Shown in pieces: positions 357 through 23,515 of a DNA stretch of 64,000 bases (positions are counted from its first letter, which is position 1; each line of letters opens with the position of its first letter). The notes below the pieces were generated by a model. The model was not told the DNA's origin and did no database searches. It was given only the letters and a program-made list of their open reading frames with translations. This DNA is from Escherichia phage vB_EcoM_EP57, in the sequence record OR544956, one strand, 5' to 3'. Both the position numbers and the translations under genes were made by a program.

Positions 357-1406
357 TCAACAGCAGTCAGGTTTATTGACGAAGGTTTTGCCTCGTTGCC
401 AAGTACTTAATTTGAAATCGGCAGGACTTAAAGCTTTAGTAACCCATGCAGAATTTGTTTTTTCTAACATGGCCCACCATCTCCAACCTGCGGAATCCGT
501 AATAGTGATGTTAAAATCATCTGCGTATGAACGATATGTAATAGATTTTAAATTGGCTGTTTTAGTTGGTGTTAACCAAAACCCAACAGTAAAACCACCA
601 TCTGAATCCATATTAGCAGAAACTATCTGATCACTATTTGTCCCAGCAATACCAGTTGCATATTTATATTGTATCACAGTATTGCTTCCCCAGTCAACAA
701 TAATTCTGGGTTCAGCAATAATATATACACCCCCTCCAGGAGGTTCAGTGCGCATAAAACTGGATAAAGGTATATCCATCTTAGTCATATTAGCTGCACC
801 AAGAGGTAAGCCACAACGATATGTCACTGTGTCTGTTTCACTCTTAGTCTTGCTTAATTCTAACTCTGGACGGAAAAGAACACCTTCCCCTGCATCATCT
901 ACACCTTGAAACTCAATACGCAGTTTTGAATTCTGATCCACTCTGAACCAAACTGCTTGTTGTTCTAGAGTTGTTTGTGCTGCAACATCTTGGCGAATTA
1001 CTGTGTATCCTAACTCGTCACGAGAATATTTAGGTATTGCTGTAGATGGGTATGAGTAATCATACGAGATACCATCTGTAAAAGGAATTATTGCTGTCGT
1101 AGATCTACGGAAGAATTTATCAAACATATCGATGTTTGAGTAGTCTTGACACAGCAATAAAGAAGATTGCCAGCAAAGCCAGTATTTTCTCTCTCCTGTG
1201 ATCTGATACATCAGGTAGTTTGCATCACACCACCACGTTTCAGCATCGGAAGCATTATCTTGATAACCTAACTCTACCGGAACGTTTACAGGACGGTTAT
1301 GCCACATCTCATTACGCTTAAGCAGATATCCACCGTGTTCTACAGGGTTGCATGTAGCGTAGTTGAATTTATAGTCACCGTTCACAGAAGCATTTTTAAG
1401 TTGCAC
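357..1406 (-). CDS. tail fibre / receptor-binding protein, middle segment; frame stays open upstream to ~1622
   Basis: 349-aa ORF; track start is an internal GTG; Trp/Tyr/Gly-rich fibre-like composition; position at distal end of tail module. Confidence 0.35.
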   Translation of the reverse strand: MQLKNASVNGDYKFNYATCNPVEHGGYLLKRNEMWHNRPVNVPVELGYQDNASDAETWWCDANYLMYQITGERKYWLCWQSSLLLCQDYSNIDMFDKFFRRSTTAIIPFTDGISYDYSYPSTAIPKYSRDELGYTVIRQDVAAQTTLEQQAVWFRVDQNSKLRIEFQGVDDAGEGVLFRPELELSKTKSETDTVTYRCGLPLGAANMTKMDIPLSSFMRTEPPGGGVYIIAEPRIIVDWGSNTVIQYKYATGIAGTNSDQIVSANMDSDGGFTVGFWLTPTKTANLKSITYRSYADDFNITITDSAGWRWWAMLEKTNSAWVTKALSPADFKLSTWQRGKTFVNKPDCC

Positions 1407-1480
1407 TGTTCCATATTCTGCAAAGCTGTGACCTGTAGATAAAATGTTACCGTCCCAATCAACTTTACGTCCTAGACGAT

Positions 1481-2107
1481 CTATAATCCATTCAACGTCC
1501 CACTGATCTCCATATTCTTTCCAGTTGGTTGAACCGTCTGGGTTAATTGCATAAACTGTTGCGTTAACGGAGTTCCAACCAAGATTACCATTGAAAGCAA
1601 ACCAAGCTTTATCTGCGCACCTTTAGGAATAATAGTCCTTCCGTTAATCCAAGTCATCATGCTACCTTTGAACCCACCGTGCGTAGGATACCCATCATCT
1701 GTGAGAGGATAGTGTGCTAAACGTGGTTCTTTACCATTGATGATCCAGTTGGGACGATATTTAGCTGGAGGATCAGGAATAGGTTGGCCCCCGAAGAAGT
1801 GATCTATATAGGCTTGCCAATACTTCTCGGCAGATTCAAGATATTTTTTATCCCCTGTAGCCAAATATGCATAAGCAAAACCAGTGATAAGCACAGATTG
1901 ACCTTCGGTAGTAGCGTCACCGTTTGGTTGCCCTTCCTGCGCTGTCCAGTTAATAAAGTGTCTGTTGTTCGCCAATACGTTTTGTGGGTTGATAATGTAA
2001 TGCTGAACCGTAGGATCTATGGTAAGCCCAGTATTTCTTTCCAAAAACTGAACCAACCCTTCAATCAACTGAAACGTGTTGTCAATATTGTGCTTAACTC
2101 TTGACAT
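1481..2107 (-). CDS. tail fibre protein, N-terminal segment (upstream frame of the same interrupted gene)
   Basis: 208-aa ORF; its last ~45 codons overlap the open upstream extension of 357..1406; TAATG coupling to 2107..2400. Confidence 0.35.
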   Translation of the reverse strand: MSRVKHNIDNTFQLIEGLVQFLERNTGLTIDPTVQHYIINPQNVLANNRHFINWTAQEGQPNGDATTEGQSVLITGFAYAYLATGDKKYLESAEKYWQAYIDHFFGGQPIPDPPAKYRPNWIINGKEPRLAHYPLTDDGYPTHGGFKGSMMTWINGRTIIPKGAQIKLGLLSMVILVGTPLTQQFMQLTQTVQPTGKNMEISGTLNGL

Positions 2108-2400
2108 TAAATAACTCCTGCTAAAACTAAGCTACCTGTCCAAGTTGCACCATTATCATAACTGATAAACTCAAAAGTGTCTGTTGCACCTTGACGATAA
2201 CTCAAAACTGGGGAACGACCAAAACTCCATTTTACAGAAGAAGGCCATACGACTTTATTTGCACCACTTCCTTGACGCAAAGCTAAAGTAAAGTTTAAAA
2301 CTGCATTTGTTGCTACTGGAATATTAGTAAAACTAATTGTGCACGTTGCAGAAGATAAAGTTGCAGAAAAATATTCTGCTGAACTAATATCTAATGCCAA
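2107..2400 (-). CDS. hypothetical tail/baseplate protein
   Basis: 97-aa ORF in the tail module; TTG start; 17-nt overlap with upstream ORF. Confidence 0.3.
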   Translation of the reverse strand: MALDISSAEYFSATLSSATCTISFTNIPVATNAVLNFTLALRQGSGANKVVWPSSVKWSFGRSPVLSYRQGATDTFEFISYDNGATWTGSLVLAGVI

Positions 2401-5375: not shown

Positions 5376-6077
5376 TTAACCTCCGTTGTTTGTTGGGGTA
5401 TTAGTAGCTTTGGCAGTTCTTACTGTAATATCTGACTTAGGACCATCCGAAGAAACTTGACCTTTCACATCACCACCAGTCGATTTATTTGGTGCTGTTT
5501 TTACAGCAATAGCATTAGTAGTGGCCTTAGAAACGAGACGGATTTGTTCGAACTCTAAATCAAATTGCATAGCAAATTCAGATTTATAATCATAAGAGTA
5601 GCCTTTGAGAATAACATTTTCAAAAGTTCTGTGTTCTGTCAAAAGAACTATTGGTTGTCTTGACTCAAATATTTGATCTAGATATTCTATTGCTTGAGAA
5701 ATCCTTGCACCATTTACACCTGCACTGTATAATTGATCTCGCATAAGCCGAATTGGTGTTTCGGTAATTATACCTGAAAGTTTAAATCTGTTGTTTTTTA
5801 TTTGAACGTGGTCACTTACATCCGATCCTGATTCTACTGGAAAACTTGTAACATCTGCCTCACGAGTTACACCTATTTCAGGGACTGAATCGAAAGTAAT
5901 TGCTTTAAAGTTTTGAATGTATTGATCACTTGAACTATTATAAACACTTGCTAAAATGCAGAAACCATTATCACCCTTTACAGTAGATGCCGAGGTATTT
6001 TTATTCTCGGTAGAGTTGATTTCCTGTTCTGCCTTATAGACGGCTCTCACCGACTGTTGTGGAGTCATTGCTGCCAT
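5376..6077 (-). CDS. hypothetical tail protein (distal tail / baseplate hub candidate)
   Basis: 233-aa ORF immediately downstream of tape measure gene. Confidence 0.3.
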   Translation of the reverse strand: MAAMTPQQSVRAVYKAEQEINSTENKNTSASTVKGDNGFCILASVYNSSSDQYIQNFKAITFDSVPEIGVTREADVTSFPVESGSDVSDHVQIKNNRFKLSGIITETPIRLMRDQLYSAGVNGARISQAIEYLDQIFESRQPIVLLTEHRTFENVILKGYSYDYKSEFAMQFDLEFEQIRLVSKATTNAIAVKTAPNKSTGGDVKGQVSSDGPKSDITVRTAKATNTPTNNGG

Positions 6078-6169
6078 GATAACCTCGTAGTAATGATAAT
6101 GCCAAAAGGAAGATGCAAGATCTTCCCATATTGATTATTGTAACACATATAGAAACTTCGTGTCAAGGG

Positions 6170-6198
6170 AAACGAAAAAACCCCGCCGAAGCGAGGTA
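6170..6198 (-). terminator. stem-loop plus T-run downstream of tape measure gene
   Basis: minus strand CCTCGC-TTCG-GCGGGG followed by TTTTTT. Confidence 0.35.
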
Positions 6199-6203
6199 TT
6201 TTA

Positions 6204-8048
6204 TTAACCACCAGTGTTAGATTGTCCACTTAGAGTTGAAAGAGATAAACGTTGGAAAATGCTATTTCCGCTATTTTGAATTCTTGCATCAAGAATATTT
6301 CCAAACTCTGAAGAAGGGCTGATCGTAACTTTGATAAGATCACTTGGTATTGCTACCGTATTCTCAACAACAGGTTGATTACGAGCCAAACTTACATTAG
6401 GTGTATATGCCGACTGACGTAAATCTTCCAGAGGATTACCAAATCCAAAAGCACGTGTCCTTGTTTGTTCTCCTCTCCACATACGACCAATATCTTGTGT
6501 ATCAATACCTGTTAAATTGTACAACCAATCTGCTACAGGATTGCTGTCTCCACTTTGCGTTGCCTCGTATGCTTTTTGTGCTAAAGATTTATTAGGATCT
6601 GTGTCTTTAACGTTATCCAACCAAGAATCATCTTTAGGTAAGGCTTTCACAAAACCCTCTAAGAAGTGGTTCTGCATACCTTGACCTACAAGCTGAACTG
6701 TTGCAGCAAAACGAGTAAACTCTTTAGAAGCATCTATTTGTTCTTGAGTTAATGTTGCACCTGTTCTTTGAAGCATTTTCAATACTTCATTATACCCTTC
6801 GCCGTTTTTACTAAACATACGTTGGTAGTGCATAAGGTCATCACCAAGGTTTTCAAGAAGTCGCCCGATTTGAGCAGAGTTCATACCTCGACGCTCACCT
6901 TCATTAACAGTAGCCTGAATAAAAGCTAAAGGATCGTTCTGTAAAGGTTTAAGCTGTTCTGGATTCCATCCAAACAAGTTCATAATGTCATTTATGCCAT
7001 TATCACCGCCTTTCCACTTCCCTTCTTTCTCATTCCATTTTGAGGCTAAAACTGTATTACCAAGACGTTCACGAACGTCTTTAATATTATCTATTGACTT
7101 AATAATATTTGCAGAGTCTACACCGTTCTGTTCACCCCAAGCTGTCATCGCTAAAATAGAGTTGGCGTTTGTCTGAACGTTTTCAGCGCCACGACTTACA
7201 AGTTTAATTCTTTCGTTAGTATTCATCAACGTGTTACCAACTACAGAACCACCTGCAAACAGCCCAGCACCTATTAAAGAGGATGCAATCATGCGTGGAT
7301 TAAGACCTGCTGCACCTTCTTTTAATTGTCCATATCGACGATCACGATCACGTTTTTGTTGAGCTAATTCACGCTTACGGTTGCGTTCTATATCTCTAAG
7401 TTCACGATTTCGCATACGTATACGCATTTTAGCTTCTGCTTCTAGCTCTCTACGAATACGGCGACGACCGCGAACCTCGTCTTCTATTTCAGCATTCTTT
7501 TCACGATGAGATCTGCGTAAGGCATCTAACTGGTGAGCAAGAGCTTGGTTCATACGTTGAAGAGTTATTTCACCCTTTTTGTATTGCTCTACAGCTTTAC
7601 CCATAACGTCCCTAGCTTCTTGCATAGCCCCAGGACTGGCTTTACTAAATGCTCTTGCTCTGTAGTTAAAGTTCTGCAAACGAAGATTACCTAAATCTTC
7701 CCTACGTGCTGCTGCTTTAGCTTCGCGTTCAGCAGCTTTACGAGCTTTTTCTTCTTCTCTTCCTTGCGGGGTTTTAGGAGTTCTAGGTCTACCAGATCCG
7801 CCTACAGGAGCACCCGCTCCAGCGGGAGTAGGTGCTCGCATAGGTTTTTGACTTTGAGTTTGAGCTTTCTTAAGTTCACGCTCAATCTCTTTCATTTGTT
7901 GTCTAAACTTGGTCATGTTCATAGTGGGTTGCATTTTATTTGCAAACTTCTGAACACTCAACACGGCATCTTTTGCTTCCTTGAGACTGTTCTTGTCCAC
8001 CTTAAACGTAACCACGTTACTAATTTTGGAGGCGTTAATTTCTAACAA
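6204..8048 (-). CDS. tail tape measure protein
   Basis: 614 aa, long charged coiled-coil stretch (REEEKARKAAEREAKAAARRE...), directly downstream of the frameshifting chaperone pair. Confidence 0.5.
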   Translation of the reverse strand: MLEINASKISNVVTFKVDKNSLKEAKDAVLSVQKFANKMQPTMNMTKFRQQMKEIERELKKAQTQSQKPMRAPTPAGAGAPVGGSGRPRTPKTPQGREEEKARKAAEREAKAAARREDLGNLRLQNFNYRARAFSKASPGAMQEARDVMGKAVEQYKKGEITLQRMNQALAHQLDALRRSHREKNAEIEDEVRGRRRIRRELEAEAKMRIRMRNRELRDIERNRKRELAQQKRDRDRRYGQLKEGAAGLNPRMIASSLIGAGLFAGGSVVGNTLMNTNERIKLVSRGAENVQTNANSILAMTAWGEQNGVDSANIIKSIDNIKDVRERLGNTVLASKWNEKEGKWKGGDNGINDIMNLFGWNPEQLKPLQNDPLAFIQATVNEGERRGMNSAQIGRLLENLGDDLMHYQRMFSKNGEGYNEVLKMLQRTGATLTQEQIDASKEFTRFAATVQLVGQGMQNHFLEGFVKALPKDDSWLDNVKDTDPNKSLAQKAYEATQSGDSNPVADWLYNLTGIDTQDIGRMWRGEQTRTRAFGFGNPLEDLRQSAYTPNVSLARNQPVVENTVAIPSDLIKVTISPSSEFGNILDARIQNSGNSIFQRLSLSTLSGQSNTGG

Positions 8049-8068
8049 AGTATGTTCCTCGTGTTGGA

Positions 8069-8407
8069 TTAAACAAGTTTCTTAAACAAATCTGACATTT
8101 TATTTGTCTGGTTTTGATGTTTTCTCTTTATTGAAGTGTCTTTAACATACATGGCTTCAACATACTCTTCGTATGTTAAATACTCATATAGTTTTAAAAG
8201 ATAATCTACACCGTAGTTATCCAATGTTTTCAGTGTTTCCGAGGTATCTTTAACGACTTTGCAAAGAATAACCTCATACCACTTCAAAGTAAGGGTTTTC
8301 GTTGCTGTGTCGATAGCATGTTCAATCGCAGGTGTTAATTTGCTGCTAAACTCGTCATCGCCTGAAGCTGTGTGAACAGTTTTCCGAAACCTCGTTTGAA
8401 AAAAGGG
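8069..8407 (-). CDS. tail assembly chaperone frameshift extension (GT-like, reached by -1 slip)
   Basis: -1 frame is open continuously from the slippery site at 8398..8407 to the stop at 8069; downstream ORF has no RBS of its own. Confidence 0.45.
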   Translation of the reverse strand, partial: PFFQTRFRKTVHTASGDDEFSSKLTPAIEHAIDTATKTLTLKWYEVILCKVVKDTSETLKTLDNYGVDYLLKLYEYLTYEEYVEAMYVKDTSIKRKHQNQTNKMSDLFKKLV

Positions 8408-8817
8408 CCGTAGTTTACCTCCAGAACTTTAGCAGTAAGATCTAACACTAGTTCTGGGTGAGCCATAAATAATTCATCAAAATTTTCTGCAACGTTATAA
8501 CCGTCTTGAGTATAAACCTCATCTAAAATTTTACGCAAAAATACAGTTAAATTCTTTTCTTCCAAACCTGCAAAAAGTTGGATCAGTGCCATAGCAATAC
8601 GTGACTCAAGGTCTTCGTCTGCGGACATTGTTGCTGTGCTATACATAGTCATAGGAACAACCAGAACACTACCCAATTCTGGAATCCTGTCAAACACTTT
8701 AGATGGACTCCACTTCATAATACGGAAAGTAACAGATCTGTTTCCATCTAACGGAATCTCAACTACTTCTTCTGGTCGAGCATATTTTTGAATCGTGTTA
8801 TCTTGTTCTTGTGACAT
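8335..8817 (-). CDS. tail assembly chaperone (G-like, zero-frame product)
   Basis: 160-aa ORF between tube and tape measure genes; slippery run near its 3' end. Confidence 0.5.
   Translation of the reverse strand: MSQEQDNTIQKYARPEEVVEIPLDGNRSVTFRIMKWSPSKVFDRIPELGSVLVVPMTMYSTATMSADEDLESRIAMALIQLFAGLEEKNLTVFLRKILDEVYTQDGYNVAENFDELFMAHPELVLDLTAKVLEVNYGPFFKRGFGKLFTQLQAMTSLAAN
8398..8407 (-). promoter_or_regulatory. programmed -1 ribosomal frameshift slippery site (CCCTTTTTTC)
   Basis: zero-frame codons GGC CCT TTT TTC; X_XXY_YYZ heptamer T_TTT_TTC. Confidence 0.45.
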
Positions 8818-8821
8818 ATTT

Positions 8822-8850
8822 TCCTCTCTAATGATAAAAAGGGCATTTCT
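8822..8850 (-). terminator. stem-loop plus T-run between tube and chaperone genes (attenuator candidate)
   Basis: minus strand AGGGCAGAAATGCCCT followed by TTTTATC. Confidence 0.3.
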
Positions 8851-8862
8851 GCCCTTTATTTA

Positions 8863-9314
8863 TTATTGAATTGTCAGAGCAGAGATTGAGTTAAGGGTGC
8901 TCAAACCTACACCAACTTCATTACGCAGAAGACTTGCATCTTTAAGACCAATAACCCATTGGTTCTCTGTAATCATTTCGCCAATAGTATCTTCAGGCTG
9001 ACTTTGAATCCATCCAATCGTGCTAATGTAATAGCCACGTGGGTCTTCCAAGTAAACACTGAACGCTACTTGACGAGTAGAATACATTGTTTGTGCATAT
9101 GTTGCAAGCAAGACATTGTGAGTGTTCCCAAACGGTTACGACTCAAAGCTAGTGAAACGTCGCCATCAGTCCCTGAATAAGGGTTGATAATATCGTTAGA
9201 TTTAGCAATAACGATTTTAGTATCAGCCGCAAAACCCCACGGTTCCCAACCACCTAATGAAAGGATAACTTGAGATGGGTCGTAGGCCATTACGCCAGTA
9301 AGCATTTTATCCAT
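8863..9314 (-). CDS. tail tube protein, interrupted by an apparent frameshift near 9111-9138
   Basis: two overlapping 82-aa ORFs in different frames (9066..9314 and 8863..9111); second has no RBS and TTG start; together ~145 aa, tube-sized, between sheath and chaperones. Confidence 0.4.
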
Positions 9315-9360
9315 TATAGATCCTCTTTATTTTGATAACGGGGGCTTAACCCCCGCCGTA

Positions 9361-10734
9361 TTAGTTTGCAGTACGGTTAGTCAGGACGTTGACCTGAACT
9401 TTAACGTAATGGAAGAAGCCAGCGTAAACATATTCAATCTTCATCCCATCGACCAGACGAGCATTGATTTGCGCATCAGTCATATCGGCACGAGAAGGAA
9501 TATAAACAATAGGTTTCAGATCGACACGCAAACCAGTCTCTTCAGAAGTAACAACTTCATTAGCGATGGAACCGTTGAGGATACCTACTTGGATTGGGTT
9601 AGCCAGAACAGCTTGTCGAATCAAAGCCAGACCGTTTGAAGTAGCACGAACACCACCACCCAGCATAGACTGTTGTTTAAACAGTGTAAACAGTGATTCT
9701 TCTGTGCGAGCTTTAAACCACAAAGCATGAACAACATAGTCAACAAAGAAACCGCTAACCATCAATCCATCACGATAGAACAGAGTTCCATGCTCTTTAC
9801 GATAGATGTTACCGTTCTGTTGAACAATATTGTTTTCCGAAGTCTGATCCAGTTTCTCGATCTCTACACCTACCAGTGTTTTACCGTGAAGAGTAGTTAA
9901 ACCAGGTTGACGAGAACAGATTGCACCAACAACTGCTGCTTCTGGGAATACAGAATCTGCATCGGTCATCCACAAAGCAAAGCAAGTGTTATTATAACCG
10001 AGGTCATTCAGTCGTTCCAGAACGTTATCTTCTGCTTTCGTTTTAATTCCAGGTTCAGAACTAGAGAAGAAGTAAACTTTATCATTCTCTTCTACCCATG
10101 CAGCCAAAGCTAGAACATCTTCTGTTTCATGGGAATCTGAAAGGGTCCAGAACCAGCTACTATCAATATCATGCAGAGCAGCGATATCTTCCGTAATAGC
10201 ATTAGCATAGACAGTTTCTTGAGTGAAACCTGTGCTGTCAATAGAACCAAACTTACCTTCTACTGGAGTGAAAGTCATTGCAGCGCCGTTGTTAGCTACT
10301 GTAAACAGTGGGCCATAAACAAGATCTGCATTGATCATTTCAGTCAGACCAACTACAATCTCTTGTGCAGTTGCAGTGTCATCAGCAATGAATTTAAATT
10401 CTTTTTTCTTGGTACCATTTTTGATGGTAATTGTGTAAGTTGCACTATCTTCTACGATTGGAGTTAGAGTAAAGTTTGTAACTTCACGCTTACCAACCAT
10501 GACTTGATCTGGTGGGAACAAACCGTTAAACAGTTTGACTGCCATAATATACGCTGGATCATTTAATCCATAACCTGCTTCCAAAAGTGCATCGGAAGAA
10601 GAGTAATATTGAATCGCTTCGCCAGTTACGTTCTGACCTGTAAGGATCAGGGGAATATCGAACTGGGTTTCACGAATTGATGTAGCACCATACAGTAAAG
10701 TTACGGTTGCTACCTTTTCACGAAAAGTTGCCAT
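9361..10734 (-). CDS. tail sheath protein (or major tail protein)
   Basis: 457-aa ORF immediately upstream of tube and chaperone genes; hairpin after its stop. Confidence 0.4.
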   Translation of the reverse strand: MATFREKVATVTLLYGATSIRETQFDIPLILTGQNVTGEAIQYYSSSDALLEAGYGLNDPAYIMAVKLFNGLFPPDQVMVGKREVTNFTLTPIVEDSATYTITIKNGTKKKEFKFIADDTATAQEIVVGLTEMINADLVYGPLFTVANNGAAMTFTPVEGKFGSIDSTGFTQETVYANAITEDIAALHDIDSSWFWTLSDSHETEDVLALAAWVEENDKVYFFSSSEPGIKTKAEDNVLERLNDLGYNNTCFALWMTDADSVFPEAAVVGAICSRQPGLTTLHGKTLVGVEIEKLDQTSENNIVQQNGNIYRKEHGTLFYRDGLMVSGFFVDYVVHALWFKARTEESLFTLFKQQSMLGGGVRATSNGLALIRQAVLANPIQVGILNGSIANEVVTSEETGLRVDLKPIVYIPSRADMTDAQINARLVDGMKIEYVYAGFFHYVKVQVNVLTNRTAN

Positions 10735-10768
10735 TTATGCTCCTGTTAGAAACTTAATTCCAATGAGT

Positions 10769-11407
10769 TTATTCGGTAGGGTTGTTAAATAATGATCCAT
10801 TTTGATTGACTGACGAGTATTCGCCTGGAACCAAAGTAATTGCATAAACCCTGTTTAGAATTAAATCTAAAGGGATAGGATCATTGTAACTATCTCTGAA
10901 TGAACGGATGTGCATGTTGATTGCTTCTATTGGTGTAGTAGCAATATCTTCAATACTCATACGAGTGTTGAACGTCATAACCATACGCGCTCTTAATTCA
11001 GTCTTATCTCCGTCTACAATTGTATTGGCTTGAGCTATATTGGAGGCTCCTAAAAAACCAAGACCTTTAGAATAGAGATGTTTGTATTTTAATTCCTCTG
11101 CACCACGGAGAGCAGCCAGAACATAGCTCATCAAAGTGGTAGGTCTTCCACGATAGGCTACAAGTTCAATCTCGTAGGTATTATCCATCTCGTAGGAATA
11201 CATATCATTTTGAATAGAGCTTCGGTAAGACCAACCTCCAGAATCGCTGGAAGTGATAATATGTAGTGCTAGGTAAGGAGTATCCGGTTTAATGAATGGC
11301 TTATCCATAACATAGACTGGCAACCCCACTAATTCTTGAAGGAAGCCACCTATATTTAAGTAGATGGCATTTTCGTATGCTTCTATTTGTTGGTAAATAT
11401 TAGCCAC
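10769..11407 (-). CDS. hypothetical head-tail joining / tail completion protein
   Basis: 212-aa ORF between head and tail modules. Confidence 0.3.
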   Translation of the reverse strand: MANIYQQIEAYENAIYLNIGGFLQELVGLPVYVMDKPFIKPDTPYLALHIITSSDSGGWSYRSSIQNDMYSYEMDNTYEIELVAYRGRPTTLMSYVLAALRGAEELKYKHLYSKGLGFLGASNIAQANTIVDGDKTELRARMVMTFNTRMSIEDIATTPIEAINMHIRSFRDSYNDPIPLDLILNRVYAITLVPGEYSSVNQNGSLFNNPTE

Positions 11408-11503
11408 TGTTCTGTTCCTTGTTGTAACCCCTTCATTTCTGTTTTAGTCCAGAAACTATATTGAGCCTTAGATCTGTAACCTTCAGGTAGTGCATTCAGT
11501 GTT

Positions 11504-11695
11504 TTACCAGATATCGGTTGTAAGCTTGCCTTCAATGGTAAATGGTTCATATTCTACACTACTTTCTAAGTTAGCAATAACTGAACCAACAGCCTCTTTG
11601 TAGACTCGTCTACGACCTTGGTATTCAGTTAGATCAAGGAGAGTAAATTGATCTAGTAACACTTGTATCTCCTTTTTAGTATACATCAAAAACAA
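11504..11695 (-). CDS. hypothetical protein
   Basis: 63-aa ORF, same strand, intergenic fit. Confidence 0.25.
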   Translation of the reverse strand: MFLMYTKKEIQVLLDQFTLLDLTEYQGRRRVYKEAVGSVIANLESSVEYEPFTIEGKLTTDIW

Positions 11696-21553: not shown

Positions 21554-21632
21554 TGGAGGCGGGAATTGGATTTGAACCAATGATCTCCAGCATATGAAAC
21601 TGGCGAGGACGACCAGACTCCTCTATCCCGCT
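21554..21632 (-). tRNA. tRNA-Met (anticodon CAT), CCA encoded
   Basis: hand-folded cloverleaf; T arm ATTGG-TTCAAAT-CCAAT; anticodon loop TTCATAT; A1:C72 mismatch noted. Confidence 0.5.
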
Positions 21633-21638
21633 ATTATG

Positions 21639-21710
21639 TATCCCGTGCTGGATTCGAACCAGCATCACAATAAGCTGTGGAACTCTTATCCTGTAAGTCT
21701 AACGGGAAAC
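21639..21710 (-). tRNA. tRNA-like element, anticodon not resolved (possible pseudo-tRNA)
   Basis: T arm GCTGG-TTCGAAT-CCAGC and acceptor-like ends, but no canonical anticodon arm found by eye. Confidence 0.25.
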
Positions 21711-21784
21711 TGGTTGTTTCGACAAGAATCGAACTTGTGTCTCACGATTATCAGTCGTGGGTTCTACCATTGAACTACGAAACA
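21711..21784 (-). tRNA. tRNA-Ile (anticodon GAT), CCA encoded
   Basis: acceptor TGTTTCG/CGAAACA, D arm GTTC-AATGGTA-GAAC, anticodon arm CACGA-CTGATAA-TCGTG. Confidence 0.65.
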
Positions 21785-21790
21785 TTAAAT

Positions 21791-21867
21791 TGGTCGGAAT
21801 TGCAGGATTCGAACCTGCGACCCTACGCTCCCAAAGCGTATGCTCTACCAAACTGAGCTAAATTCCG
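21791..21867 (-). tRNA. tRNA-Pro (anticodon TGG), CCA encoded
   Basis: acceptor CGGAATT/AATTCCG, D arm GCTC-AGTTTGGTA-GAGC, anticodon arm TACGC-TTTGGGA-GCGTA. Confidence 0.65.
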
Positions 21868-21960
21868 TCATAACATTCTAAAGGTACACCGCAAAAGAAA
21901 GTGTTCGGCGGCTCCTCGTTTTTAACTTCACACTTGAGGTAGTGACTCACCTTTGTTATA

Positions 21961-22036
21961 TGGCTGGTCTGTCTGGATTTGAACCAAACCTACGACAGTC
22001 AAAGTGTCGTGTGCTACCGGACTACACTACAAACCA
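21961..22036 (-). tRNA. tRNA-Gln (anticodon TTG), CCA encoded
   Basis: anticodon arm CGACA-CTTTGAC-TGTCG; T loop TTCAAAT; acceptor pairs with one G-U. Confidence 0.55.
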
Positions 22037-22134
22037 ATAAATCATTTAATGAAGGGCAACCAGAAGAGGTGTGAGAGAAGGAGAAAACCATGAGTAAAAG
22101 AGAAAGTTTTCTGGCAACCCTTTATTAAATAATT

Positions 22135-22208
22135 TGGAGCGTTCTACGAGGATCGAACTCGTGCCGCCGACTTGGAAGGACGGAATGCTACCGCTACACC
22201 AAGAACGC
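22135..22208 (-). tRNA. tRNA-Gly (anticodon TCC), CCA encoded
   Basis: acceptor GCGTTCT/AGAACGC; anticodon loop CTTCCAA; T arm ACGAG-TTCGATC-CTCGT. Confidence 0.5.
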
Positions 22209-22219
22209 CCTACATCTTT

Positions 22220-22249
22220 ACTATACTACATTTTACTATTGGTTGTCAA
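22220..22249 (-). promoter_or_regulatory. promoter with AACTATTGACAA element, start site just upstream of the tRNA at 22208
   Basis: minus strand TTGACA - 18 nt - TATAGT. Confidence 0.45.
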
Positions 22250-22438
22250 TAGTTTTATTGAGTGGGACAGTGACGAGTATCCCGTTGGGTGACTAGCCCT
22301 ACGTTCGGTAAGCTAACTTAAAATAATACAAAACCAAAGTCAAATATTATTCTTCGTTGCTGTCGATGGGAGAGCCGCTTCTCATTTTGCCCCATCCAAC
22401 CCTACTCCGGTCAAGTTTCGGGTAACTCTTTTTGTGTG

Positions 22439-22527
22439 ATCAACACAATACTAAGAACACTGTCTTTCGAACAGACCTTGTGCACAGGATACGACGATCA
22501 ATCACAGTGCTCTTAATGTTGTGTTGG
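22439..22527 (-). ncRNA. tRNA-like degenerate element (GTTCGAA loop, 8-bp terminal pairing), not a canonical tRNA
   Basis: ends CAACACAA/TTGTGTTG pair; internal hairpin with TTCGAA loop; no cloverleaf could be completed. Confidence 0.2.
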
Positions 22528-22599
22528 TGCTCCCACACTGAATCGAACAGAGATCCACGGATTACAAAACCGTTGTAATAGCCATTATACTATAGGAGC
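22525..22599 (-). tRNA. tRNA-Thr (anticodon TGT), CCA encoded
   Basis: acceptor GCTCCTA/TGGGAGC (one G-U); anticodon loop TTTGTAA. Confidence 0.45.
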
Positions 22600-22605
22600 A
22601 AAGCT

Positions 22606-22682
22606 GGGACTCGGCAGGATTCGATACCTGCAATTCCAGAAGCCTCTTGGCGACTGGGGGTTTACCTTAACTCTACAAGTCC
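22606..22682 (-). tRNA. tRNA, anticodon not resolved by eye
   Basis: acceptor GGACTTG/CGAGTCC pairs; T-arm-like GCAGG-TATCGAAT-CCTGC with 8-nt loop. Confidence 0.3.
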
Positions 22683-22689
22683 ATAATTC

Positions 22690-22775
22690 TGGCGATGAGT
22701 ATAGGATTTGAACCTATATCGTTCTTTCGAACACGGATTAACAGTCCGCCGCTTAAACCATTCAGCCAACTCATC
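22690..22775 (-). tRNA. class II (long variable arm) tRNA with apparent anticodon GTT
   Basis: acceptor GATGAGT/ACTCATC; anticodon arm GCGGA-CTGTTAA-TCCGT; variable arm GTTC-GAAA-GAAC; T arm ATAGG-TTCAAAT-CCTAT. Confidence 0.45.
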
Positions 22776-22781
22776 TTAATT

Positions 22782-22869
22782 TGGTGGTGAGTGATGGAGT
22801 TGAACCACCCGAATCGCAATGATAACAGATTTACAGTCTGCCCCGCTACCCCTACGGAATTAACTCACC
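22782..22869 (-). tRNA. tRNA-Tyr (anticodon GTA), class II, CCA encoded
   Basis: acceptor GGTGAGT/ACTCACC; anticodon arm GCAGA-CTGTAAA-TCTGT; T arm GGTGG-TTCAACT-CCATC. Confidence 0.6.
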
Positions 22870-22947
22870 TAAATACTAATATTTAAATTCTTTTTAAAAT
22901 AGCCAGTGTTCACACCACTAACTATGTAAGCCATATTAAAAAGAACT

Positions 22948-23033
22948 TGGCGGTAGATGTAGGACTCGAACCTACACGCCGTTTCCGACTACAGTTTAGC
23001 AAACTGTCGTGGCTACCATTTCACCAATCTACC
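22948..23033 (-). tRNA. tRNA-Ser (anticodon GCT), class II, CCA encoded
   Basis: acceptor GGTAGAT/ATCTACC; anticodon arm ACAGT-TTGCTAA-ACTGT; long variable arm. Confidence 0.6.
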
Positions 23034-23038
23034 TAATC

Positions 23039-23129
23039 TGGCGGAAGGAGGGAGAGTCGAACTCCCAAGGCTCTTTCAAGCTCGGCGGTTTTCAAGACCG
23101 TTTTCGTCGCCACGTCGATTTGCCCTTCC
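23039..23129 (-). tRNA. tRNA-Ser (anticodon TGA), class II, CCA encoded
   Basis: acceptor GGAAGGG/TCCTTCC; anticodon loop CTTGAAA; long variable arm; T arm GGGAG-TTCGACT-CTCCC. Confidence 0.5.
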
Positions 23130-23138
23130 ATACTTATA

Positions 23139-23167
23139 ATCTAACATAAAATAATGTTTGTTGTCAA
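23139..23167 (-). promoter_or_regulatory. promoter with AACTATTGACAA element, start site at the tRNA-Ser 5' end
   Basis: minus strand TTGACA - 17 nt - TTAGAT. Confidence 0.4.
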
Positions 23168-23363
23168 TAGTTTTTTAAAACATTTTACCATGAATGGTGA
23201 CTCCACCAACCCCCGTTCTCCACGAACGGTGCTCTTCGAGCATTTATGTCTTCTAATATAACCGTGGCCTTTGTTTATAATGTCTGACATACTTGCCTCA
23301 TTCTCTGCCACCATGATCAGTAGTGGGTTCAAATTACTTGAGCTAATTCATGTTAAAATGTTC

Positions 23364-23438
23364 TGGTGTCTTTACAAGGAATCGAACCTTGACTAAGAGT
23401 TTAGAAGACTCCTGTGCTATCCATTACACCATAAAGAC
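23364..23438 (-). tRNA. tRNA-Arg (anticodon TCT), CCA encoded
   Basis: acceptor GTCTTTA/TAAAGAC; anticodon arm GGAGT-CTTCTAA-ACTCT; T arm CAAGG-TTCGATT-CCTTG. Confidence 0.6.
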
Positions 23439-23440
23439 GT

Positions 23441-23515
23441 TGGTGGCCCTGGCTGGTTTCGATCCAGCTACCTATCGGTTATGAGCCGACAGCTCTCCCA
23501 TTGAGCTACAGGGCC
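23441..23515 (-). tRNA. tRNA-Met (anticodon CAT; could be fMet or Ile2), CCA encoded
   Basis: acceptor GGCCCTG/CAGGGCC; D arm GCTC-AATGGGA-GAGC; anticodon arm GTCGG-CTCATAA-CCGAT. Confidence 0.6.

Follow-up and report, generated by a model that had tools for sequence, protein, structure and literature searches.

The window analysed here, a 64,000-nt stretch of Escherichia phage vB_EcoM_EP57 (record OR544956), belongs to a phAPEC8-like E. coli myovirus (Phapecoctavirus). Compared with its nearest relative, it carries 28 deletions and no insertions, and several of these deletions disrupt essential genes. On the minus strand, the genes for the tail sheath, the tail tube, the chaperone G with its predicted extended form GT, and the tape measure protein follow one another (Table 1), and this order is identical in tuntematon, SKA64, phAPEC8, phi92, and rV5. 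The initial annotation had placed a programmed -1 frameshift in a tail assembly chaperone at 8069-8817; these coordinates are correct, and to them we add the minus strand, which had been left out. It had also described the locus as the conserved G/GT arrangement upstream of the tape measure gene, and a chaperone with matches to PF21822 and phrog_3840 does precede the phrog_16051 gene. The tape measure gene begins at a TTG (8048-8046) behind the Shine-Dalgarno (SD) sequence GAGGA (8060-8056), with the same TTG annotated in relatives, and 20 nt separate the GT stop from this start. A terminator has been annotated in phAPEC8 at the position equivalent to the hairpin between the tube and chaperone genes.

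Table 1. Features of the chaperone locus and its neighbours, in window coordinates.
Feature	Position	Strand	Evidence or remarks
Tail sheath gene	9361..10734	minus	phrog_205 'tail sheath' at 2.9e-100
Tail tube gene	8863..9314	minus	phrog_280 matches both halves
Terminator-like (intrinsic type) hairpin AAAGGGCAGAAATGCCCTTT, then T run	8838..8857	minus	between tail tube and chaperone genes
SD of chaperone gene, GAGAGGA	8828-8822	minus	3' of the terminator-like hairpin
Zero-frame tail assembly chaperone gene, G / TAC-N, 160 aa	8335..8817	minus	ATG 8817-8815, TAA 8337-8335
SD-like GGAGG within G	8418..8422	minus	sequence; possible dnaX-type upstream stimulator
Slippery run CCCTTTTTTC	8398..8407	minus	two overlapping heptamers in G
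-1 frame extension (T part)	8069..8407	minus	112 sense codons, then TAA 8071-8069
Dual-coding overlap of G and T	8335..8397	minus	last 20 sense codons and stop of G over the start of T
Conserved T domain	roughly 8072-8290	minus	phrog_16039 at 5e-44 on fusion residues 178-249
Tape measure protein gene	6204..8048	minus	phrog_16051 'tail length tape measure protein', E=0

The 160-aa ORF matches PF21822 (Phage_TAC_15) at 1.3e-23 (84 bits, with a cut-off of 22 bits) and phrog_3840 'tail assembly chaperone' at 2.8e-55, and these matches identify its predicted product as a tail assembly chaperone. An AF2 model of G alone (pLDDT 77) resembles predicted myovirus chaperones in BFVD, including that of Hena1 (2e-7) and a Rheinheimera 'tail assembly chaperone' (8.5e-7). 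A fold search of the PDB with the same model returned nothing significant, with the HK97 chaperone 2ob9 appearing at E=1.7. The GT fusion had no match in a PDB sequence search at E up to 1, and the AF2 model of the entire fusion was unusable (pLDDT 47.8).

Near the 3' end of G lies the slippery run CCC TTT TTT C, where the initial annotation had located it. The zero frame reads GGC CCT TTT TTC AAA at this point (codons 137-141), and the run therefore holds two overlapping heptamers, C_CCT_TTT (8407-8401) and T_TTT_TTC (8404-8398), both phased as X_XXY_YYZ. The -1 frame reads CCC TTT TTT CAA and continues to a TAA that lies 330 nt downstream (8398 to 8069), the distance that had been reported. 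This frame is indeed open through the run, but it does not open exactly there as had been claimed; a TAA at 8431-8429 precedes the open stretch, which starts 7 codons (21 nt) upstream of the run. A slip at either C_CCU_UUU or U_UUU_UUC would yield the identical junction, NYGPFF followed by QTR, and the predicted GT fusion of 249 aa consists of codons 1-137 of G and the -1 extension. Predicted tryptic peptides include VLEVNYGPFFQTR at the junction, specific to GT, and VLEVNYGPFFK, specific to G. Upstream, the GGAGG sits 10 nt 5' of C_CCU_UUU and 13 nt 5' of U_UUU_UUC. Both heptamers are of the H_HH.U_UU.Y class, which is efficient in E. coli, and they shift there at more than 0.1% without stimulators (PMC4066793).

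Stops occur in the -1 frame of window ORFs of at least 150 aa at a density of 0.107 per codon, which puts the probability of 112 open codons at about 3e-6. Within ORFs of this size, 62 in-frame X_XXY_YYZ heptamers were found, and the -1 ORFs that follow them have a median length of 8 codons; the two heptamers at this locus give 112 and 111 codons, and the next-longest -1 ORF has 41. Because the probability is so small and the next-longest -1 ORF reaches only 41 codons, a chance origin of the open -1 frame is unlikely.

We compared the locus across 15 phages of the Stephanstirmvirinae and Vequintavirinae and 18 IMG/VR loci. Counts of -1 ORFs in the IMG/VR set refer to 15 of the 18 loci, as three phi92-type loci (L022-L024) were excluded when the script took an earlier, out-of-phase T6 run; the slip site of phi92 itself was confirmed separately. 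The run CCCTTTTTTC is invariant in eight diverged Stephanstirmvirinae and in the 15 scored IMG/VR loci, one of which has 32% amino acid identity. TTTTTTC occurs at the homologous position in rV5, Hena1, Ro1, SSE121, DU_PP_IV, and ChuuTotoro, with -1 ORFs of 117-128 codons, and overall this position is kept in relatives down to 30% protein identity (-1 ORFs of 104-128 codons). U_UUU_UUC is thus the heptamer common to the whole clade, and the overlapping C_CCU_UUU is an addition specific to the Stephanstirmvirinae. The wobble base at 8404 is T in all sequences, whether the codon is CCT, TGT, or AGT, and the wobble base at 8407 is C in all Stephanstirmvirinae sequences despite changes of residue (GGC, GCC, TCC). 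The Tyr codon adjoining the slip site varies freely between TAC and TAT. The initial annotation had named a lack of conservation of the -1 frame in related phages as one possible refutation; the outcome favours the frameshift, as we found this frame open until just before the tape measure gene in 15/15 phages and 15/15 scored IMG/VR loci. In every genome compared it closes a few codons 5' of the slip site, and the stop of G is likewise conserved, 20-34 codons past the site.

The predicted GT fusions can be aligned end to end in both subfamilies, with a conserved T domain. The overlap of the two frames is the stretch of the locus with the highest nucleotide conservation, and in Klebsiella phage KP13-16 the only DNA alignable by blastn is 8433..8378, the slip site and its flanks. 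In the part that encodes T alone, the comparisons that allowed an estimate of dS give a dN/dS of roughly 0.06-0.17, and variable sites fall at codon positions 1/2/3 in the numbers 51/38/73, a third-position bias. These patterns indicate that the -1 extension is under purifying selection.

A downstream hairpin or pseudoknot had been put forward in the initial annotation as a possible stimulator. No stimulatory structure came to light among pseudoknot-free folds examined with RNAalifold, shuffled sequences, and z-scores, or with Rfam. The RNAalifold consensus downstream of the site in eight relatives was -1.74 kcal/mol with no supported covariation, the downstream fold in the window was not unusually stable relative to shuffles (MFE z=+0.94), and an Rfam scan of the locus gave no match. 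Among 13 relatives examined at two window lengths, 25 of the 26 MFE z-scores lay between -1.4 and +1.5; the sole outlier, ChuuTotoro at 80 nt (z=-3.0), is not common to any other relative. The site seems to work without downstream RNA structure, and its slip efficiency may be low because there is no conserved or unusually stable downstream hairpin. The internal GGAGG upstream may add some stimulation. GGAGG or GAGG is present in most relatives and missing from Ro1, DU_PP_IV, and ChuuTotoro, and its conservation is ambiguous because GGAGG also encodes Glu-Val. A conserved downstream sequence, GGTTTCGG, was considered as an RNA element and rejected on two grounds: it lies at distances from the heptamer that are 3 nt apart in the two subfamilies, and both of its reading frames are coding, for G-F-G (zero frame) and R-F-R (-1 frame). 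Dual coding therefore suffices to account for its conservation.

The explanation that we consider most probable (about 0.88) is that ribosomes make a programmed -1 shift within the tail assembly chaperone gene, of the type known from lambda G/GT. The majority of ribosomes would translate the zero frame (8817..8335) into the 160-aa chaperone G, and a minority would slip back one nucleotide on CCCUUUUUUC, with tRNA-Phe/tRNA-Phe re-pairing on U_UUU_UUC and/or tRNA-Pro/tRNA-Phe on C_CCU_UUU. The slipped ribosomes would then read the -1 frame to 8069 and produce a 249-aa GT in which a short variable linker joins the body of G to the T domain, which is helical and conserved. The lambda gpG/gpGT and P2 E/E+E' pairs suggest by analogy that the G moiety may coat the tape measure protein encoded directly downstream and that the T domain of the rare GT may recruit the tail tube protein; a fixed G:GT ratio would therefore be set by translation. 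That slipping takes place, how often it does, and what G and T bind are points that we infer from the sequence and from these analogies.

The locus shares with lambda G/GT its position directly upstream of the tape measure gene, a zero-frame short product with a long fusion made (here, by prediction) when ribosomes slip into the -1 frame on a canonical heptamer close to the 3' end, and a second ORF without a start of its own. The lambda slip, too, is not known to need a downstream RNA structure; this frameshift was reportedly described by Levin, Hendrix and Casjens in 1993 and by Xu, Hendrix and Duda in 2004, 2013, and 2014. Unlike lambda, in which the heptamer is G_GGA_AAG, the heptamers here are U_UUU_UUC and C_CCU_UUU, the virus is a 150-kb contractile-tailed myovirus, and G belongs to Phage_TAC_15, a different Pfam family with no detectable similarity to the gpG sequence. 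The predicted -1 slip on a homopolymer-type heptamer is also reminiscent of E. coli dnaX (tau/gamma), which has an internal SD about 10 nt upstream of its heptamer, as does the GGAGG of the window relative to C_CCU_UUU. In contrast to dnaX, which has a strong downstream stem-loop and shifts at about 50%, no such structure was detected here, and the upstream GGAGG is not kept in all relatives. The P2 E/E+E' pair resembles this locus in belonging to a contractile tail, in lying between the tube and tape measure genes, and in its -1 frameshift (predicted in our case), and its slip site is also a T-rich run. P2 provides a myovirus example of a conserved frameshift, with an efficiency 2-3 fold above that of the lambda gpG/gpGT mechanism, for which a ratio of 30:1 is given (PMC5009743).

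A further parallel is found in the Vandenendeviridae (Pakpunavirus, phage Adele) and Andersonviridae, for which a -1 frameshift has been proposed at an invariant GTTTTT in TAC-N (PMC12846349, Dec 2025). The same study relates both families structurally to the Vequintavirinae, and its tests at this locus cover the Vandenendeviridae and Andersonviridae, not the Stephanstirmvirinae or Vequintavirinae (PMC12846349). Those families and the phages compared here share a T-run slip site towards the 3' end of TAC-N, a -1 frame without interruption in any genome, and a downstream piece that annotations routinely and wrongly list as a 'hypothetical protein'. The Vequintavirinae site, TG TTT TTT C, contains their GTTTTT; in the window, CCC rather than G precedes the T run, which creates the second overlapping heptamer.

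There are other ways in which the locus might operate. The Stephanstirmvirinae could use a structure-free double slip signal in which selection at synonymous positions keeps both heptamers and the internal SD upstream helps, perhaps giving an unusually high GT:G ratio, or they could make part of their GT through slippage of RNA polymerase; we regard this as rather unlikely. If true, the double signal or the polymerase slippage would set the large clade of rV5/phi92-like myoviruses apart as a variant of the lambda paradigm in its mechanism.

Transcriptional slippage in place of the ribosomal slip appears less likely still. RNA polymerase would add one U at U6 (template A6), and a minority of the mRNA would carry G and T in frame and encode an identical GT (with GPFFQTR at the junction). 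The element that is invariant in both subfamilies is the homopolymeric T6, and the absence of a stimulatory RNA structure fits this process equally well; for T4-like chaperones, Vladimirov et al. 2022 (Virology) reportedly proposes a non-frameshifting route, going by its title. Slippage is known to occur at homopolymer runs, and this is considered one of the reasons why E. coli genes avoid long U runs (PMC4066793). However, the run keeps the phase of a perfect X_XXY_YYZ heptamer in all cases, and the wobble C at 8407, kept through Gly, Ala, and Ser in the Stephanstirmvirinae, extends C_CCU_UUU and has no role for the polymerase. Appreciable slippage by bacterial RNA polymerase also usually requires runs of about 7-9 or more, whereas every sequence compared here has a run of exactly 6, and none has a longer one.

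We find it very improbable that the locus holds two independent genes as deposited, with a self-starting distal ORF (8287..8069, TTG, 72 aa) and an incidental slippery run. Many records do carry a separate 64-85-aa 'hypothetical protein' here, and phrog_16039 was itself built from such separate ORFs, but these ORFs have annotated starts at non-homologous positions and are unannotated in tuntematon, phi1_175008, and Hena1, and gp050 of rV5 is annotated from a CTG one codon 5' of the slip site. ATG is absent from the -1 frame of the window ahead of codon 84 of 111; two TTG codons, 39 and 60, are the sole candidates before it, and both lack a real SD. The Hena1 frame lacks any start codon before codon 81 of 123, with none upstream of the conserved domain, and neither a start codon nor an SD proved to be conserved in the -1 frame across the relatives compared. 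This frame moreover stays open and conserved as far back as the slip site, even through the unannotated stretch between the deposited ORFs. Finally, the idea that a once-continuous gene was split by a frameshift mutation or a sequencing error, leaving a pseudogene-like artefact, can be practically dismissed: the window does carry many frame-breaking deletions elsewhere relative to its relatives, but this locus aligns without gaps and at 99.4-99.7% identity to more than 60 independent Phapecoctavirus genomes, the two-frame layout is found in every relative down to 30% identity, and G has its own conserved stop 20-34 codons beyond the site. The initial annotation had held up the locus as an internal control, an example of biological frameshift-like structure in this DNA, and it serves well as one: G/GT is the one frame break in the window that is conserved in relatives, and the other broken genes stem from window-specific deletions.

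The frameshift reading we favour bears directly on how these phages are annotated. The locus has been deposited as two genes, gp106 and gp105 in phAPEC8 and gp132 and gp133 in phi92, and all of the GenBank and RefSeq records that we inspected for the phAPEC8, phi92, and rV5 groups show, next to the chaperone, either a small 'hypothetical protein' that is spurious or a gap without annotation. On our reading of the sequence, these records mis-annotate the locus. Among 5.8 billion database proteins there is no fused protein of about 250 aa (the longest match has at most 175 aa), and gene callers cannot produce one; in the literature searched we found no report of this frameshift, or of both products, for phAPEC8, phi92, rV5, or the Stephanstirmvirinae. 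The mechanism is a textbook one for setting the ratio of two tail chaperones and changes no concept, and the news lies only in the split within the databases. As these groups include widely used therapeutic and model phages, the predicted 249-aa GT belongs in their records as a joined CDS. The putative T-run slip site of the Vandenendeviridae and Andersonviridae would also be extended to two more subfamilies, and its presence in the Stephanstirmvirinae and Vequintavirinae thus supports a single ancient origin of this site in a myovirus super-clade.

By nucleotide identity, the window is from a phAPEC8-like phage (Phapecoctavirus, Stephanstirmvirinae), as tuntematon is 99% identical to it over 6000-11000 and other top-ranked phAPEC8-like phages are ~98.6-99% identical. 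The ORF list places all genes around the slip site on the minus strand, and their identities were assigned using PHROG and Pfam scans (Table). The initial annotation had placed a -1 programmed frameshift at 8069-8817, in a tail assembly chaperone gene upstream of the tape measure gene, with the strand left unstated; the interval and both gene identities hold, and the feature lies on the minus strand.

Table. Genes and slippery run at the chaperone locus
Feature	Position	Strand	Evidence
Tail sheath	10734..9361	minus	phrog_205, 2.9e-100 (PHROG scan)
Tail tube	9314..8863	minus	phrog_280
Tail assembly chaperone (G)	8817..8335	minus	PF21822 Phage_TAC_15, 1.3e-23; phrog_3840, 2.8e-55
Slippery run CCCTTTTTTC	8407..8398	minus	within chaperone ORF
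Tape measure protein	8048..6204	minus	phrog_16051, E=0

The zero-frame chaperone ORF, G, runs from an ATG at 8817 to a TAA at 8337-8335 (160 aa), and the slippery run was correctly noted near its 3' end, in the region of codons 137-141 (GGC CCT TTT TTC AAA). The run consists of two overlapping, correctly phased X_XXY_YYZ heptamers, C_CCT_TTT (8407-8401) and T_TTT_TTC (8404-8398), and slippage at either would give the identical junction, ...NYGPFF-QTRFRK.... The -1 frame had been described as open from exactly that point, which is off by 21 nt: after a TAA at 8431-8429 there are seven open codons before the run, followed by 112 from the run to a TAA at 8071-8069. This stop is 330 nt downstream, as first reported, and 20 nt before the TTG start of the tape measure gene (8048), in front of which is a separate GAGGA. 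GT, the predicted fusion, is 249 aa long. Given the -1-frame stop density of 0.107 per codon (one per 9-10 codons) in window ORFs of at least 150 aa, the probability of 112 open codons is ~3e-6. The -1 ORFs that follow the 62 in-frame heptamers in these ORFs have a median of 8 codons, and the next-longest has 41.

The arrangement had been called conserved, and we found it across relatives of the window, with 135 phage records matching the locus by blastn. In eight diverged Stephanstirmvirinae (phAPEC8, phiWec190, phiWec181, phi92, and the Klebsiella phages KP2025, phi1_175008, 05F01, and KP13-16) the run is invariant, and the -1 frame opens 4-11 codons upstream, spans 105-116 codons, and closes shortly ahead of the tape measure gene. 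For KP13-16, the only DNA alignable by blastn is 8433..8378, that is, the slip site and its flanks. Using the fusion as a tblastn query, both halves were also found adjacent in the Vequintavirinae; in rV5, Hena1, Ro1, SSE121, DU_PP_IV, and ChuuTotoro (~30% identity) the homologous position reads (TG/AG)T TTT TTC, and a -1 ORF of 117-128 codons again ends just before the tape measure gene. Among 18 IMG/VR loci, including one at 32% identity, the scored site carries the run in 15, whose -1 ORFs span 105-115 codons, while the other three are phi92-type loci (L022-L024) scored at an earlier, out-of-phase T run, the phi92 site itself being confirmed. The IMG/VR search patterns included the peptide NY[GS]PFFK, which biases this set toward the amino-acid motif, not codon choice. 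The codon preceding the two Phe codons is CCT, TGT, or AGT, its wobble base (8404) being T throughout; codon 137 has C as its wobble base (8407) in all Stephanstirmvirinae sequences, although the residue it encodes varies (GGC, Gly; GCC, Ala; TCC, Ser), and the adjoining Tyr codon is freely TAC or TAT. If slippage takes place at the respective heptamer, the -1 frame does not decode either wobble base anew, so their invariance is best explained by tRNA re-pairing. We take U_UUU_UUC as the signal common to the whole clade and C_CCU_UUU as an extra overlapping heptamer kept in the Stephanstirmvirinae.

RNA polymerase slippage on the U6 run would lead to the same protein and is the main alternative, but we consider it improbable, as the T run is never longer than six and the conserved wobble C at 8407 makes sense only for a ribosomal heptamer. 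For ribosomal frameshifting, a downstream stimulatory hairpin had been suggested as something to look for, and none was detected: the RNAalifold consensus (-1.74 kcal/mol) lacks supported covariation, the window's 111-nt fold is not unusually stable (z=+0.94), 25 of 26 z-scores calculated for 13 phages at two window lengths fall in the range -1.4 to +1.5, and there is no Rfam match. We also considered GGTTTCGG, a conserved stretch downstream of the slip site, as an RNA signal and rejected it, since its strong conservation is accounted for by dual coding (G-F-G / R-F-R); its spacing from the site differs by one codon between subfamilies. A GGAGG at 8422-8418, which also encodes Glu-Val, is 10 nt upstream of one heptamer and 13 nt upstream of the other, matching the spacing used by the upstream Shine-Dalgarno-like element of dnaX. 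This motif is missing in Ro1, DU_PP_IV, and ChuuTotoro and might at most be an optional enhancer. Both heptamers fall in the H_HH.U_UU.Y class found by Sharma et al. to be efficient in E. coli, with >0.1% shifting without a stimulator, and the tetramers U_UUC and U_UUU rank directly after A_AAG (PMC4066793). The window also carries a cluster of 10 tRNA genes (21554-23515, minus strand: Met, Ile, Pro-UGG, Gln, Gly, Thr, Asn, Ser, Arg, Met), but no tRNA-Phe; the phage tRNA-Pro(UGG) at 21791-21867 could decode the CCU P-site codon of C_CCU_UUU.

All 15 predicted fusions align end to end, comprising a G body, the junction NYGxFF, a linker that is variable and rich in Gly/Ser/Asp, and, in the part after the slip (T), a conserved domain with the motifs SLxW[YF], [VM][DA]Y[LF]LK, and EY[LV]. 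Outside the overlap with G, codon positions 1/2/3 of T have 51/38/73 variable sites in the Stephanstirmvirinae and 58/48/75 in the Vequintavirinae, and pairwise dN/dS is ~0.06-0.17 in those pairs that allowed dS to be estimated, dS being saturated in several pairs. Within the overlap the third-position bias is gone (17/16/12), as expected for dual coding. Together, these substitution patterns indicate that the -1 frame encodes protein. Deposited annotations give the distal stretch as a separate 64-85-aa “hypothetical protein” with varying starts (phAPEC8 gp105, phi92 gp133; phrog_16039) or leave it unannotated (tuntematon, phi1_175008, Hena1), and it is joined to the chaperone in none of the relatives' GenBank/RefSeq loci (L001-L016). 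It is very unlikely, however, that G and T are independent genes. We found no conserved start codon or Shine-Dalgarno sequence for the distal ORF in the window and its relatives, and the ORF starts at different codons in phi92, phiWec190, KP2025, 05F01, KP13-16, SSE121, Ro1, DU_PP_IV, and ChuuTotoro, while the annotated start of gp050 in rV5 is a CTG that precedes the slip site by one codon. The first -1-frame ATG in the window is codon 84 of 111, and in Hena1 no start codon occurs until codon 81 of 123, which lies past the beginning of the conserved domain. No fused protein was present among 5.8 billion database proteins, in which matches to G are 158-175 aa, an absence that stems from gene-caller limitations and not from biology.

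A usable AF2 model of G alone (pLDDT 77, pTM 0.71) shows a helical bundle preceded by a small beta-hairpin. The last helix predicted with confidence (121-141) ends at the slip site, and confidence is low for the zero-frame tail (143-160). In BFVD, the fold of this model resembles predicted chaperones of other myoviruses, namely Hena1 (2e-7), a Rheinheimera phage “tail assembly chaperone” (8.5e-7), and a Moogle “tape measure chaperone” (0.012). Among solved structures there was no significant fold match (HK97 chaperone 2ob9, E=1.7), and the full fusion could not be modelled well enough for use. By analogy with lambda, we infer that G and the G part of GT would bind the tape measure protein, that the T domain would recruit the tube subunit, and that translation would set the G:GT ratio, which is ~30:1 in lambda, with 2-3 fold more GT in P2 (PMC5009743). 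A terminator-like hairpin (AAAGGGCAGAAATGCCCTTT, 8838-8857) followed by a T run lies between the tail tube and chaperone genes; its equivalent is annotated as a terminator in phAPEC8, and it may reduce chaperone and tape measure transcription relative to the abundant sheath and tube genes.

That the two-frame layout is an artefact has a negligible chance of being correct, as it is contradicted by the conservation data and the chaperone locus is gap-free against relatives (blastn). Compared with tuntematon (NC_052660) over 64 kb, the window has 28 deletions (1 to 4044 nt; 6058 nt in total) and no insertions; 20 of the 28 have a length that is not divisible by three, and the deletions are flanked by just 0-4 nt of microhomology. 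Two sister phages would not normally differ in this one-sided, frame-breaking way, which suggests that the sequence is damaged, mis-assembled, or deliberately altered. Several deletions break essential genes. For example, a 28-nt deletion at 9109/9110 splits the tail tube gene, 480 nt (159 aa) in relatives, into overlapping minus-strand ORFs of 82 aa each (9314..9066 and 9111..8863). The 28 nt are present in all of the at least 64 records covering at least 80% of a 101-nt junction query. The split is a lesion specific to the window and presumably lethal, or else an artefact of assembly or editing, rather than a programmed frameshift. The large tail protein gene (window 357-2400; 2877 nt in tuntematon gp142) is broken by 17-, 19-, and 2-nt deletions into ORFs of 349, 208, and 97 aa, and deletions of 151 nt at 11406 and 2 nt at 11530 disrupt the gp153/gp154 homologues (11383-11695), whose counterparts in relatives carry the annotation minor head protein or head-tail adaptor. 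The minus-strand tape measure gene has lost 144 nt in frame at 6604/6605 (614 aa, compared with 662 in tuntematon, phAPEC8, and SKA64), which, if real, predicts a shorter tail. The other frame breaks in the window thus look like window-specific lesions or artefacts, and the G/GT shift is the only frameshift-like feature here common to relatives, in keeping with its initial use as a biological control. Some of the compared records have oddities of their own. In Raoultella phage Ro1 (MG250486, locus L013, 135-607) the tube gene, a single gene of ~474 nt in its relatives, is annotated as two “structural protein” CDSs (135-329 and 368-607), which may be a frameshift or sequencing error. Among the E. 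coli phapecoctaviruses and justusliebigviruses there are also records labelled as Campylobacter, Acinetobacter, and Pseudomonas phages (e.g., MG0656xx, vB_AbaM_ABPW7, and PsgM04F). Over 5 kb, ABPW7 matches the window at 98.6% identity; the rest are at ~74%, like their E. coli relatives, and these labels likely result from host mislabelling or contamination.

The predicted frameshift is of the textbook G/GT kind, reportedly described by Levin in 1993 and by Xu, Hendrix, and Duda in 2004. For phAPEC8, phi92, rV5, and the subfamilies to which they belong, our literature search turned up no description of it. The related Vandenendeviridae and Andersonviridae are argued to share this arrangement in a paper from December 2025 (PMC12846349), which points to a GTTTTT that is invariant close to where TAC-N ends and to mis-annotation of the distal ORF. 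Given the textbook precedent and this parallel, the present case adds to a known kind, and its outcome is not a discovery but a corrected annotation for a large group of therapeutic phages.
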